Below are positions 1,227 to 7,038 of a DNA stretch of 14,864 bases, in pieces. The DNA lies in IMG/VR virus record IMGVR_UViG_2703718837_000007. The stretch is one strand, 5' to 3'. The notes below the pieces were generated by a model. The model had not been told where the DNA came from, searched no databases, and was given only the letters and a program-made list of their open reading frames with translations. The translations under genes and the position numbers were made by a program. The DNA is from a virus. Taxonomy: Duplodnaviria; Heunggongvirae; Uroviricota; Caudoviricetes. The stretch's first letter is position 1; every line of letters starts with the position of its first letter.

Positions 1227-1526
1227 TCACATCACCCTGAAGCCGTTGCATTTACGTAAAAAATCGCAGATATAGCCCTTCATTTTTTCGTGCCAATCTC
1301 GATCATTCCCATTGCACCAACCATCAGGTGGAGTCCAGTTTTCTATCAGAGCAGCCATTTTCTTTGCTTTCGCCGGAGTAGCTGTTGCGGTATCGCAGTA
1401 ATGACGAGTGTCAACCAACGCATCCATACCATCGATATCAAGTACGCAAAACCATGTGTGATTCGGAATTCCTACAGGTGGTATTTGTTGCCCACGTCGA
1501 CGTTTATCAATAAGATATACACTCAC
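1227..1526 (-). CDS. Hypothetical protein (99 aa), GTG start
   Basis: The track shows a 163-aa ORF (1227..1718) whose 5' part overlaps Lar in another frame. An internal GTG at 1526..1524 is preceded by AAGGAGG with a 6-nt spacer, giving VSVYLIDKRRRGQQ...CNGFRVM. No family recognised. Confidence 0.45.
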   Translation of the reverse strand: MSVYLIDKRRRGQQIPPVGIPNHTWFCVLDIDGMDALVDTRHYCDTATATPAKAKKMAALIENWTPPDGWCNGNDRDWHEKMKGYICDFLRKCNGFRVM

Positions 1527-1746
1527 TGTTTGCCTCCTTTGCTCGCTGATTCCACTCTGCTCTAACCTCTGAATAAAAAATCGCGCAGTCATTTCCAGGC
1601 GCTGCATATTTGCTACCAGATTGAGCGCGACACGTACCGCATCGAACGAAATAGAATCGACCGCCAGAGCCATATTCAGGGTGATCTGCTTCGCTGGCAA
1701 CGTGCGCTGCACCGCCACAGAATGGACATGGTAGTAGGTTGCTCAT
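1507..1746 (-). CDS. Lar-family restriction alleviation protein (79 aa)
   Basis: [12 protein letters not shown]...FVRCGTCRAQ: CPFCGG plus CxxC spacing typical of Lar-family small zinc-binding proteins. Start ATG 1746..1744 overlaps the upstream TGA as ATGA (translational coupling); the track ORF 1507..1779 carries an 11-codon N-terminal extension that I reject. Confidence 0.6.
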   Translation of the reverse strand: MSNLLPCPFCGGAAHVASEADHPEYGSGGRFYFVRCGTCRAQSGSKYAAPGNDCAIFYSEVRAEWNQRAKEANSECISY

Positions 1747-2474: not shown

Positions 2475-2768
2475 TCAGTCATTACTGATAGCGCCATAGC
2501 GTGATCGGTAATTACGCAGGCGCGGGTCAATTTCATGGAAGTGGGTATATGTGGCTTTGCGGAATGGTCGGATTGATGTCTGGTAAATTCGCTCGCGTTC
2601 TTCTTTCTCTGCAAGCCATATACAGTGGCGAAATTCCTTTTCCTCTTTCGTTTCCTGCGGTAGAGACATTATTCGATCGTAGTTTTTTCTGAATTTATCC
2701 AGCACCTCCGATACGGAATTGCCGGAACAGCGGCGCGCGTCGTCCGCACCATACAGAGGCGCTGGCAT
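2475..2768 (-). CDS. Hypothetical protein (97 aa)
   Basis: ATG at 2768..2766 with AGGAGA 6 nt upstream, lying just downstream of the exonuclease stop. No family recognised. Confidence 0.45.
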
Positions 2769-2784
2769 GGTTTTCTCCTGTTGA

Positions 2785-3192
2785 TTATTTAGCTAACTTT
2801 TTCCAGATCGCTGAAACGTATTTGGCTTGGTGGATGGCATCATCAAGCGCGTTGTGGCGAGTTCCTTTGAATGGCATATCTCGCTTAGGATCGAATCCTA
2901 TTACCTTCCCAAGTTCGACGATTGTTCTTACGTCGCGGTCATTCCACCACTGCCACGGAACTGGCTGCCCTGTCAGCGAATAACTGTTGCGGAGAATAAC
3001 GCAGTCAAATGATGCTCCATTCCCCCAAACCTGAACGAGTTTGTGGTTGGCGTTCTTTATGATGAATTCAGATAACCATGAAAGAGCCGTTGAAAGCTCT
3101 TGAGTGTTGCTGGTTAGCGATTTTCTGGCTTCTTCACTCTGTTCCAGCCACCATAAAATCGTTGAAGCGTCAGGACGCGCCCGATATCGCAT
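2785..3192 (-). CDS. DnaQ-like (DEDDh) 3'-5' exonuclease domain protein lacking the N-terminal Exo I motif; possibly 5'-truncated (135 aa)
   Basis: Exo II-like [12 protein letters not shown] and Exo III-like [14 protein letters not shown] are present, but no DxE Exo I motif. In-frame stop 112 nt upstream of the ATG (3304..3306), no good SD, and no alternative frame upstream encodes a recognisable Exo I segment. Confidence 0.55.
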
Positions 3193-3281
3193 TGATGACT
3201 CAAGCGAGATATTTACCGAGAACTCTTCTCCTGTTTCTCCGGTATTGGTCAGGGTGTCAGATTTACCGACAGGAGGTACGA

Positions 3282-3458
3282 ATGAGACGACAGCGACGAA
3301 GTATCACCGACATCATCTGCGAAAACTGCAAATACCTTCCAACGAAACGCTCCAGAAATAAACGCAAGCCAATCCCAAAAGAATCTGACGTAAAAACCTT
3401 CAACTACACGGCTCACCTGTGGGATATCCGGTGGCTAAGACATCGTGCGAGGAAATGA
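3282..3458 (+). CDS. Candidate small, highly basic ORF (58 aa); uncertain
   Basis: ATG at 3282 preceded by AGGAGG with a 5-nt spacer; [30 protein letters not shown]... Lies in the putative deletion-junction region and overlaps the start of the gp10-like remnant frame; could be chance. Confidence 0.2.
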
Positions 3459-3696
3459 CAATGCTTTTAATTCAACCTGGATTGCGCAGTACGCCGACCG
3501 CCTGTTCCTCTCTGCAACCACTGACGGCATAAATTACGGGCGTGAGCAGATGATTGAGCAGAATGAACCGTTCGTTTACGACAAACGCGTTTTGTGGAAG
3601 CGAGTCGGGCGCATCAGGAAAAATGTCGGCTTCAAATTGCGCGTTATCACGAAGTCACCTGTCACTCTGTCTGGCGCTAAGATAAGGATTGAGTAA
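3439..3696 (+). pseudogene. Probable 3'-terminal remnant (about 85 codons) of a gp10-like tail hub / head-completion gene
   Basis: Frame opens after the TAA at 3436..3438 and ends in a TAATG overlap with the needle gene, as gene 10 precedes gene 26 in P22. Assigned by synteny only; P22 gp10 is about 470 aa, so at most the C-terminal fifth is present. The sequence itself was not recognised. Confidence 0.35.
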
Positions 3697-4544
3697 TGGC
3701 GGATTCGAATCTCAATGTGCCGGTAATCATTCAGGCTACACGGCTCGACACATCAGTCCTTCCACGCAATATCTTTTCGCAGTCGTATCTGCTTTACGTT
3801 ATCGCACAGGGTACTGATGTTGGTAACGTGGCTAACAAGGCCAACGAGGCCGGACAGGGCGCTTATGATGCACAGGTCAGGAACGATGAGCAGGATGTGA
3901 TTCTCGCTGACCATGAGCAGCGAATTTCTGCTGCGGAAGCAACGCTTGTTAATCATGAGGAGCGAATCAGCCAGGCAGAATCAACTCTTCAGGAACATGA
4001 AACGCGAATCGCTCAGAATGAAAGCGATATTGCGTCTCTTGATACCAGAGTTCAGTCGCTGGAGTCGCAGGTTTCAGACCATGAAACGCGCATCGATGCT
4101 CTTGAGTATGCCACTACTCGCAAGAAGTCAGAGGTTGTTTACTCTGGCGTATCTGTAACCATCCCGACAGCGCCGACCAACCTTGTTAGCCTGCTGAAAA
4201 CGCTCACGCCGTCATCCGGCACGTTGGCACCATTCTTCGACACCGTTAACAACAAGATGGTTGTGTTCAACGAGAACAAAACACTGCTCTTCAAGCTGTC
4301 GATTGTCGGCACGTGGCCCAGCGGAACCGCCAACAGGTCAATGCAGCTAACCTTTTCCGGCTCTGTTCCTGACACACTGGTAAGCAGCCGCAACTCGGCG
4401 ACAACAACCGATAACATCTTGTTAGCTACGTTCTTCAGCGTGGATAAAGACGGCTTTCTTGCCACAAATGGCAGCACGTTAACCATTCAGTCAAATGGGG
4501 CGGCGTTTACTGCCACAACCATCAAGATAATCGCGGAGCAGTAA
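3696..4544 (+). CDS. Tail needle (P22 gp26 family), 282 aa, with a C-terminal globular domain unlike P22's
   Basis: N-terminus [43 protein letters not shown]...[16 protein letters not shown] closely matches the recalled P22 gp26 N-terminus, followed by HExRI coiled-coil repeats. The C-terminal 140 aa or so differ from P22. Confidence 0.9.
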
Positions 4545-4999
4545 TGATTCAGTTCAAACCAACGCGAAACATCGACCTGATCGAAGCAGTCGGAAATCAC
4601 CCTGACATTATTGCCGGAAGCAACAACGGTGATGGATACGACTACAAGCCTGAATGCCGTTACTTTGAGGTTAACGTGCACGGTCAGTTTGGCGGCATTG
4701 TTTACTATCAGGAAATTCAGCCGCTTACATTCGATTGCCACGCCATGTACCTGCCAGAGGTTCGTGGATTCAGCAAGGAAATCGGACTGGAGTTCTGGCG
4801 ATACATTCTGACTAACACCACTGTTCAGTGTGTCACATCGTTCGCTGCGCGCAAATTCCGCCACGGGCAGATGTACTGCGCAATGATTGGCCTTAATCGT
4901 GTAGGAACCATCAAGAAATACTTCAAAGGCGTGGATGACGTGACATTTTACAGTGCTACACGCGAAGAACTAATCGAATTCCTGAATCACGGGAGATAG
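4544..4999 (+). CDS. gp14-like protein (P22 gene 14 position), 151 aa
   Basis: TAATG overlap with the needle gene; position between the gene-26 and gene-7 homologues. Assigned mainly by synteny. Confidence 0.55.
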   Translation: MIQFKPTRNIDLIEAVGNHPDIIAGSNNGDGYDYKPECRYFEVNVHGQFGGIVYYQEIQPLTFDCHAMYLPEVRGFSKEIGLEFWRYILTNTTVQCVTSFAARKFRHGQMYCAMIGLNRVGTIKKYFKGVDDVTFYSATREELIEFLNHGR

Positions 5000-5001
5000 C
5001 C

Positions 5002-5697
5002 ATGTTATATGTATTTAAGCTGGGCAGAAAACTGCGCGGCGAGGAACCTTATTGCCCTGAAAAAGGCGGGAAAGGTGGCAGTTCTGATAAAAGCGCAAAG
5101 TATGCCGCAGAAGCTCAGAAGTATGCAGCAGACCTGCAAAATCAGCAGTGGCAGACGATCATGAAAAACCTTGCTCCGTTCACGCCGCTTGCGGAGCAGT
5201 ATGTTAACCAGCTTCAGAACCTTTCCAGTTTAGAAGGTCAGGGGCAGGCACTTAATCAGTATTACAACTCTCAGCAGTATAAAGACCTTGCAGGTCAGGC
5301 TCGTTACCAGAGTCTTGCTGCTGCGGAGGCGACGGGTGGACTTGGTTCGACAGCCACAAGCAATCAACTGGCTACGATCGCGCCGACACTCGGTCAGTCT
5401 TGGTTATCAAATCAGATGAGCAATTACAACAATCTGGCAAACGTTGGGCTTGGTGCGCTGCAAGGTCAGGCAAACGCCGGGCAGACGTACGCCAACAACA
5501 TGAGCAGCATTGCACAGCAAAGCGCAGCACTTGCCGCTGCTAACGCCAATAAACCATCAGGCCTTCAGACAGCAATTAGCGGCGGAGCTTCAGGGGCTAT
5601 GACTGGCGCTGCTCTTGGCTCTATTGTTCCCGGACTTGGCACTGGATTAGGTGCGGCAATTGGCGGCGGACTTGGCCTGCTTGGATCGTTGTTTTAA
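5002..5697 (+). CDS. Ejection (E) protein, P22 gp7 family, 231 aa
   Basis: N-terminus MLYVFKLGRKLRGEEPYCPEKGGKGG resembles recalled gp7; Gly/Ala-rich C-terminus; GGGAGA SD; length close to P22 gp7 (229 aa); correct synteny. Confidence 0.75.
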   Translation: MLYVFKLGRKLRGEEPYCPEKGGKGGSSDKSAKYAAEAQKYAADLQNQQWQTIMKNLAPFTPLAEQYVNQLQNLSSLEGQGQALNQYYNSQQYKDLAGQARYQSLAAAEATGGLGSTATSNQLATIAPTLGQSWLSNQMSNYNNLANVGLGALQGQANAGQTYANNMSSIAQQSAALAAANANKPSGLQTAISGGASGAMTGAALGSIVPGLGTGLGAAIGGGLGLLGSLF

Positions 5698-5706
5698 GGG
5701 GTAATC

Positions 5707-7038
5707 ATGGCTACTTGGCAGGGAACAAATGGCGGATTGTTGGCTGGTATCGGTGGTATCAACTCAAACGCTCCGAGCGTAAATGACATCGGCAACACGC
5801 TTCAGCTTATCAGGCAGAACAATGATATTGAGCGTTCAGGCGCTAACAATGTTGGGCTGACAGCTTTGCAAGGTCTTTCTGGTATTGCGGGGGTGTTTCA
5901 GCAGGAAAAGCAGGCTCAGCGGCAGAAAGAATTTCAGCAGGCGTACGCTAATGCTTATGCGTCTGGTGATCGCGGTGCTTTGCGTCAGTTGGCTACTCAA
6001 TATCCAGACCAGATTGAATCCGTTCGTAAAGGCATGGGATTCATTGATGAAGAGCAGCGTAATTCTATCGGCACCTTAGCTGCTGGCGCACGCCTTGCGT
6101 CATCGTCTCCAGAAGCAATGCAATCATGGCTGCAAAACAACGCCGGTGAGTTAGCTCGTGTTGGCGTTAATCCTCATGACGTCGCTCAGATGTACCAACA
6201 GAACCCGCGGCAGTTCGGCGAATTTGTCGATCACCTGGGGATGAACAGTCTCGGGCCCGAAAAATACTTTGACCTACAGGATAAAATGCAGGGTCGCCAG
6301 GTTACCATGCGCGGTCAGGATCTGGATTCGCAAACCGCCGCTCGGAATCAGGCAATCACAATGCGCGGACAAGATATCCAGGCGAATTTAGGTCAGCAGC
6401 GCATTAATCTGGACGCAGAAACAAACCGCATTAACAACGAAAATAAGCGCCTTGACCGGATGCTATCAGCAGAAACTAACGACCTGAAGCGCCAGGAAAT
6501 ACAGAGCCGCATAGCAGCCAACAACCAGCAGTTGCAGCAGAAGCAGCAAGCGCTAAATGATGGCTACAAAGACGGCATCAACACCCTCACAACCAGCATG
6601 TTCACTCTGAACGATATCGTTAGCTCTCCTTCACTTAAGAGCATTACAGGCTTACGTGGAGTAATCCCCAACGTTCCAGGCTCACAGGCTGCAGACACTC
6701 AGGCACGACTTGATACCTTTAAATCACAAGCATACCTGACAGCGGTTCAGGCCATGCGAGGCATGGGCGCACTTTCTGATGCCGAGGGCAAAAAGCTCGA
6801 CCAGGCTGTTGGTTCGCTGCAGAACTCGCAGAGCGAGGAGTCCTTTCGTCGCAACGCTGGCGTCATCCTGAACACGCTCAACCAGAAGCGTAATGAGGCG
6901 GTTGGTAAGTACGTTCAGCAAAACGGTATCAAGCGAGTGGAAGCGCCTCAGGCTTCTATAGATTACCTGAAGCAGCCCCCCGAGCTGTCAATCGACTTCA
7001 TTAATCGCTACGGATATCTTCCATCTTTGGGGCAGTAA
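5707..7038 (+). CDS. Ejection (E) protein, gp20-like, 443 aa
   Basis: AAGGGG SD; follows the gp7-like gene and precedes the gp16-like gene with a TAAATG junction; Q/N-rich coiled-coil-like sequence with repeated TMRGQD motif. Assigned by synteny and size. Confidence 0.65.
   Translation: MATWQGTNGGLLAGIGGINSNAPSVNDIGNTLQLIRQNNDIERSGANNVGLTALQGLSGIAGVFQQEKQAQRQKEFQQAYANAYASGDRGALRQLATQYPDQIESVRKGMGFIDEEQRNSIGTLAAGARLASSSPEAMQSWLQNNAGELARVGVNPHDVAQMYQQNPRQFGEFVDHLGMNSLGPEKYFDLQDKMQGRQVTMRGQDLDSQTAARNQAITMRGQDIQANLGQQRINLDAETNRINNENKRLDRMLSAETNDLKRQEIQSRIAANNQQLQQKQQALNDGYKDGINTLTTSMFTLNDIVSSPSLKSITGLRGVIPNVPGSQAADTQARLDTFKSQAYLTAVQAMRGMGALSDAEGKKLDQAVGSLQNSQSEESFRRNAGVILNTLNQKRNEAVGKYVQQNGIKRVEAPQASIDYLKQPPELSIDFINRYGYLPSLGQ

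Follow-up and report, generated by a model that had tools for sequence, protein, structure and literature searches.

Rac, DLP12 and Qin are defective (cryptic) lambdoid prophages of E. coli in which, as at the locus described here, internal deletions have removed the immunity, replication, lysis and head genes, and the att sites, int/xis and accessory or conversion genes near the ends have been retained. Among intact phages and prophages, Sf6, HK620, IME10, Gally, CurroJimenez_Bas106 (Bas106) and the prophage of E. coli E189 resemble the locus in their arrangement (int-xis-ea-abc2-exo ... ninB-ninE ... 4-10-26-14-7-20-16-(mnt)-tailspike-conversion genes), with 92-99% DNA identity over the shared pieces, but they keep a stretch of ~10 kb between exo and ninB and another of ~14 kb between the post-ninE gene and gene 10, both of which are lacking here. 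In the laboratory, the nin region of Sf6 undergoes spontaneous deletions, some of them flanked by short direct repeats; these are 1-3 kb in size, are centred on IS911 and leave a viable phage (PMC5630979).

The window, by which we mean the whole stretch of 14,864 nucleotides that was analysed, comprises the larger part of a P22-like prophage (14.9 kb), and its segment 3193-3696 is a compound scar of a decayed prophage of the Sf6/HK620 type at the lambda attachment site of a K-12-like E. coli. Here three pieces, separated in an intact genome by ~10 kb and ~14 kb, have come to adjoin one another without change of order or orientation (Table 1), and we regard it as practically certain that the structure consists of two junctions and three collinear pieces in a defective prophage. 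Altogether ~24 kb is missing, ~10 kb from the 5' end of exo to ninB and ~14 kb from the post-ninE gene to about codon 400 of gene 10, and with it the recombination, kil, immunity and replication genes, most of nin, Q, the lysis, terminase, portal, scaffold and coat genes, gp4 and most of gp10. The remnant between the att cores measures 16.8 kb, compared with 38-40 kb in intact relatives. Of the set expected in a functional prophage (terminase, portal, scaffold, coat, gp4, lysis, repressor, replication), no member is found between the cores, and the element is unable to form particles or lyse the cell. Retained are the complete needle, ejection and tailspike block, gtrABC, int/xis, abc2 and the ea genes. 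The scar is a product of ordinary prophage decay and will not surprise a specialist.

Table 1. Features of the window, with the basis on which each was assigned
Feature	Position	Strand	Basis
Piece 1: leftward early operon ending in the exonuclease gene minus its first 29 codons	up to 3246		99.3% to mEpX2 abc2-exo
Piece 2: nin fragment, 241 bp	3243..3483		99.2% to HK629, HK630 and Gally nin regions
Piece 3: last ~70 codons of gene 10, then intact 26-14-7-20-16, mnt, tailspike, gtrABC	3471/3472 onward		
abc2 (anti-RecBCD), 97 aa, intact	2475..2768	-	99.3% to mEpX2 abc2; PF11043 on identical gene in L004
exo', 5'-truncated 3'-5' exonuclease gene, codons 30-182 of 182	2785..3246	-	PF16473
Junction 1, exo'/ninB': 4-bp overlap TATT common to exo and ninB	3243-3246		Three-way base-by-base comparison
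ninB 3' end, last 43 nt including stop	3243..3285	+	Gally GALLYPH_40; 99.2% to HK629, HK630, Gally
ninE, complete, 58 aa	3282..3458	+	PF05322 1-58 of 58, E=7e-44
Start of post-ninE nin gene, first 23 nt, ATG at 3461	3461..3483	+	Gally GALLYPH_42 start
Junction 2, nin/gp10': shared TT in 9-of-13 patch	3482-3483 (patch 3472..3483)		Allele comparison
gp10' remnant, last ~70-75 codons of 472-codon head-completion gene	3472/3484..3696	+	PF11134
Gene 26, tail needle, Sf6-type knob, 282 aa, intact	3696..4544	+	PF16532 1-175 of 175, E=7e-117
Gene 14, full length	4544..4999	+	Pfam on identical gene in L004
Gene 7, full length	5002..5697	+	Pfam on identical gene in L004
Gene 20, full length	5707..7038	+	Pfam on identical gene in L004
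Gene 16, SLT domain, full length	7039..9432	+	Pfam on identical gene in L004
mnt-like repressor	9522..9782	-	Pfam family
Tailspike	9904..12027	+	Pfam family
Type-specific gtr, 506 aa	12065..13585	-	No Pfam match on record
gtrB	13585..14505	-	Pfam family
gtrA	14502..14864	-	Pfam family

In megablast comparison with phage genomes, the counterpart of the left 3.2 kb is the stretch of the leftward early operon that holds ea, abc2 and the exonuclease in lambdoid and P22-like phages, and 3472-10244 matches genes 10'-26-14-7-20-16 of IME10, Sf6, Gally, HK620 and their relatives at 92-97%. The P22-like late order 10-26-14-7-20-16 followed by the tailspike is thus present, as judged from Pfam families, synteny and DNA identity to IME10, Sf6 and Gally. 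On the circular genome of the P22-like phage Bas106 the counterparts of the three pieces are found at 21940-23006 (minus-strand genes), at 33558-33770 and from 8311 onward; opened at att, this genome has the order and orientation of the window, with equal relative strands. The intact E189 prophage (int, xis, ea, abc2, exo, ssb, erf, kil, repressor, cro, cII, replication, ninB, ninE, ninX) likewise carries the left two pieces in the window's order and orientation. Measured against these references, the first deletion amounts to 10.6 kb on the Bas106 scale and 9.7 kb on that of E189, and the second to 13.6 kb on the Bas106 scale and 14.3 kb on that of Gally. In the E189 prophage itself (L013, 29045..31438), the DnaB-like helicase is annotated as split into an N-terminal pseudogene and an unusually long C-terminal part of 595 aa, which may reflect an insertion (e.g. 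an intein) or a frameshift.

The leftward early operon, of which abc2 is the final complete gene ahead of the scar, breaks off within exo. The earlier note had described an exonuclease on the opposite strand without its Exo I segment and had taken both genes flanking the break to be truncated, and it was right on each count. The longest ATG-initiated ORF of exo' (2785..3192, minus strand) encodes 135 aa, and exo' aligns to positions 30-177 of the 177-position profile of the Rv2179c-like, DEDD-type 3'-5' exonucleases (E=6.6e-56). Homologues are not normally ~135 aa long, an objection the same note had raised against itself: the genes of mEpX2, Bas106 and E. coli E189 encode 182 aa and their homology to exo' reaches 3246 and then ends. 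Full-length proteins start MNHLMVDLET..., and in the protein alignment with mEpX2 and Bas106 the window copy begins at residue 30. Among the matches listed in a search of 5,426 complete E. coli genomes, each one that includes the exo gene also ends at 3246. The 29 residues lost (MNHLMVDLETMGNGPYAPVISIGAVFFDP) contain the Exo I D-x-E motif (MVDLET); with two of the DEDD catalytic residues gone, general knowledge of the family predicts that the product should be inactive.

The ~250 bp that the earlier note had seen between the two truncated genes is DNA from a third place in the phage genome, which mapped on the Gally annotation comprises the 3' end of ninB, the whole of ninE and the first nucleotides of the next nin gene. 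The ninB stop overlaps the ninE start as ATGA, an AGGAGG ribosome-binding site stands upstream of ninE, and a 58-aa NinE gene was called in contigs L014, L019 and L021. The post-ninE gene, which follows ninE in Gally, HK629 and HK630, is here joined to gp10' out of frame; its frame closes at 3532 (ORF 3419..3532), and an in-frame fusion protein was rejected on these grounds. A 126-aa ATG ORF (3078..3458, plus strand) runs antisense through exo' and continues in frame into ninE; it is a junction artefact that gene callers could take for a long NinE.

The nin island also bears on the event that the earlier note had proposed, a single deletion of roughly 25 kb that joined the ea/early operon straight to the 3' end of gene 10 and took the nin region with it. 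The ~24 kb missing in total and the truncation of both flanking genes fit such an event, and the proposed size was close to correct as a sum, but it is split over two deletions of ~10 kb and ~14 kb. Alignment to intact relatives, which that note had suggested for placing the breakpoint, resolved two separate breakpoints to the base. Between them stand 241 bp of nin DNA with an intact ninE, which refute one simple deletion: the early operon joins ninB', and gp10' joins the 23 nt of the post-ninE gene. We therefore consider a single simple deletion very improbable.

To the right of the scar, the ~85 open codons noticed earlier ahead of the needle gene are the 3' end of gene 10, and they end in the TAATG coupling, with TAA at 3694-3696 overlapping the needle-gene ATG at 3696-3698. 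Similarity to the gp10 C-terminus, on which that assignment had been made to depend, is clear: in the ORF 3445..3696 (83 aa, GTG start), residues 9-83 align to positions 395-469 of the 469-position Phage_stabilise profile, i.e. its last 75 positions, with E=1.5e-41. From 3471/3472 on, the DNA matches the gene 10 3' end together with gene 26 of Gally, Sf6, HK620 and IME10 at 92-97% identity; for the gp10' remnant itself (3484..3696), identity to Gally, Sf6, IME10 and the prophage in L016 is 94-97%. Full-length gp10 of Bas106, Gally and IME10 has 472 aa and covers profile positions 1-469, a length the window copy falls far short of; gp10' is a gene fragment and not a member protein of PF11134. 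Its only start candidate is the GTG at 3445, which has no Shine-Dalgarno sequence, so that gp10' lacks a credible start and would be non-functional. For annotation this means that the 83-aa 'Phage_stabilise' and 135/155-aa '3'-5' exonuclease' ORFs of gene callers are gene fragments.

The late genes behind gp10' are undamaged, and the lengths of genes 14, 7, 20 and 16 match those in IME10 and Gally. Gene 16 encodes an ejection protein of 797 aa in which an SLT lytic-transglycosylase domain (PF01464) accompanies PF26808; alleles at related loci encode 602-665 aa without an SLT match. A consensus scan of 2700-3900 detected no sigma-70-like site, and a promoter created at the scar was rejected on that basis; nor did any Rfam family of structured RNAs match the window. 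Because PL, PR, Q and PR' are deleted and the scar has no sigma-70-like site, the late genes are probably now largely silent, with the needle, ejection-protein and tailspike genes poorly expressed though full length; this silence is deduced solely from the consensus scan at the scar, a point that we count against our preferred explanation.

Both junctions could be read at the base level. At junction 1, the window has CTCCGGTATTGGTCAGGGTGTC, against CTCCGGTATTCGGGTCAAAG in exo and CTGGGCTATTGGTCATGGTGTC in ninB; the crossover falls within the shared TATT, itself part of an imperfect patch (GGTATTCGGGTCA in exo, GCTATTGGTCA in ninB), with a second shared block, GGTCA, displaced by 2 nt. At junction 2, AATTCAACCTGGATT is followed by TGGCC in nin and by GCGCAG in the window. 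Four gp10 alleles (Gally, Bas106, IME10, L016) have TCAACTGG(C/A)GT(T/A) followed by GC(G/T)CAG at this point, and the patch aligns TTCAACCTGGATT of nin with TCAACTGG(C/A)GTT of gp10, its longest perfect block being TTCAAC and the crossover falling in the shared TT; the extent of this microhomology is based on related alleles, with that of Gally for nin, and not on the exact parental prophage. Base-by-base comparison revealed no filler bases, IS or long identity at either junction. The overlaps are of a few bases (4 bp and 2 bp), without filler, IS or recombinase site. IS-mediated deletion was rejected, as neither IS sequence nor extra bases occur at either junction, and so was homologous recombination, the longest perfect identity near a junction being 6 bp. 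The absence of filler, of IS remnants and of long identity is the signature of illegitimate short-homology deletion, and on established knowledge of such events the junctions would be the work of RecA-independent illegitimate recombination at short homologies. They illustrate cleanly how a prophage decays by deletion at very short homologies, and at the base level they are a precise marker for this E. coli lineage.

The 504 bp of 3193-3696 recur with zero differences, and always with both junctions, in 16 independently assembled contigs (NCBI, Logan, ENA, JGI and IMG/VR; up to 332 kb), which implies that the scar is real and of single origin. By exact-protein look-ups, the window was traced to gut metagenomes and to draft genomes of E. 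coli. Several assemblies are interrupted close by, at ~5781; this is indicative of repeats common to other prophages and could raise the suspicion of an assembly artefact or chimeric contig; with the identical segment in so many contigs from five sources and host genes on both sides, such an origin is scarcely conceivable. At 5781, inside gene 20, lie the ends of three independent metagenome contigs (L008, L010, L025), which suggests that assembly stopped at a repeat that another P22-like prophage in these samples also carries. Neither junction occurs in the 5,426 complete E. coli genomes, and the junction-2 27-mer had no match in the GTDB species-representative genomes.

Carriers of the identical scar differ elsewhere. 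The ea region varies among them: in place of the window's 163-aa DUF7739 gene (1227..1718, minus strand), L018 and L019 have, at 3783..4302, a 99-aa DUF7739 gene together with a 79-aa Lar-like gene. A further change affects the 186-aa gene in L007, and in L022 gene 20 is shortened to 390 aa. These differences indicate that decay or exchange went on after the deletions.

The remnant occupies the lambda attachment site, with ybhC on one side and ybhB (next to bioA, on the bio side) on the other. The 15-bp lambda att core GCTTTTTTATACTAA occurs once at each end, the two copies being separated by 16.8 kb (L004 14736; L014 8363), one copy between int and ybhC and the other between ybhB and gtrA. 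The integrase is of the lambda type (356 aa, PF09003) and the excisionase Xis has 72 aa (PF07825); the ybhC-ybhJ flank is 100% identical to that of E. coli K-12. Host genes flank the element, and the directly adjacent head and lysis genes that would have overturned the earlier reading are absent. That reading, a defective P22-like prophage whose att sites and integrase should be sought in the flanking genome, agrees with the gene order, the missing genes and the att sites, both cores being present along with int and xis.

The right arm of the remnant extends from 9522 to 14864, and the attR core lies 345 bp past the window end. The 506-aa gene adjoining gtrB and gtrA presumably encodes the serotype-specific glucosyltransferase. 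An identical protein, accompanied by the same tailspike, is encoded by P22-like prophages that appear intact at two further chromosomal sites, argW/yfdC (L015) and the dacD side (L016); 244 blocks of the collection list it. The gtrABC O-antigen glucosylation cluster, which lies beside attR, is the classic lysogenic-conversion module and would be the most plausible reason for the persistence of the remnant; it is the part of the element most likely to be relevant to the host, via serotype conversion.

How many events produced the scar, and in which order, can only be inferred. We favour, with moderate confidence, a course in which the middle of the prophage was worn away by successive deletions, at least two in number. 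Such deletions would have removed the recombination, kil, immunity, replication, Q, lysis and head genes one after another, with junctions formed via very short homologies (the 4-bp TATT, and the 2-bp TT in the 9-of-13 patch), and overlapping deletions repeated over time would shrink the islands left in an old prophage remnant. Two observations count against this course: no single-junction intermediate was found among the contigs covered (up to 48), and a 241-bp island between two independent large deletions is unlikely a priori (~1-2% per random endpoint pair, by our own estimate).

A single compound event is a possible, if rather unlikely, alternative. Replication template switching of the FoSTeS/MMBIR-like kind would have passed from exo to ninB, copied 241 nt and passed on to gene 10, which would accord with microhomology of 2-4 bp and no filler at both junctions, with the shortness of the retained island and with the invariable co-occurrence of the junctions. 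Single-junction intermediates were absent from up to 48 contigs, where those carrying the scar had both junctions (exact look-ups of the 83-aa and 135-aa scar ORFs, giving 14 loci, with two viral-contig scans and one metagenome scan). The recovered contigs all represent one nearly clonal remnant (99.87-100% identity), however, and the absence of intermediates therefore says little. Moreover, cryptic prophages commonly bear several independent deletion scars, and nothing in the sequence tells one event from two. A weaker variant of the single-event reading would have the intact ninE kept because of a benefit to the host. If true, a single event would provide a natural bacterial example of an MMBIR-like compound rearrangement, by which a prophage was inactivated in one step.

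The nin fragment could also be of mosaic origin, recombined or inserted into a single deletion junction from another lambdoid prophage. Lambdoid nin regions are highly mosaic, and the best matches of the fragment, HK629 and HK630, are lambda-like siphoviruses rather than P22-like phages; yet the same nin allele is found in the P22-like Gally, Kapi1 and Bas106, the position and orientation of the fragment are those expected of a leftover, and a 241-bp insertion would be an extra event for which no feature speaks. We consider this origin improbable and retain successive deletions as the preferred reading.

A second, independent P22-like remnant (L005, Logan ERR119421) offers a parallel. It lies at argW, with yfdC and an IntS-type integrase on one side and the csc sucrose genes and dsdA on the opposite one. 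At 9900-10010 exo' runs into the middle of gene 7 via a shared TCA (window 3251 joined to 5180), the exo break lying 7 bp further on than that of the window (GGTATTCGGGTCA followed by CGCCGC). Both remnants thus have the same exonuclease allele, truncated near codon 27-29, a microhomology junction into the late operon, and retained ejection genes, mnt, tailspike and an O-antigen-modification gene; L005 differs in having one junction, no nin island, and another integrase and att site. Its junction implies that deletions from the early left operon to the late operon recur in this phage type. The 7-bp closeness of the two breaks was rejected as evidence of a deletion hot spot in exo. Since the exact 135-aa ORF look-up requires a break within the first ~47 codons, closeness within ~140 bp was guaranteed and closeness within 7 bp had a chance of ~1 in 10; the coincidence is probably in large part an ascertainment effect, a genuine susceptibility to breakage in the 5' region of exo being a further possibility.

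Compared with the laboratory deletions of Sf6, those described here are larger (10-14 kb), involve no IS and have left a non-viable element. With respect to Rac, DLP12 and Qin, the remnant stands apart in being P22-like (Lederbergvirus-type) at the lambda att site, in having scars free of IS, and in retaining a complete ejection-protein, needle and tailspike block together with gtrABC.
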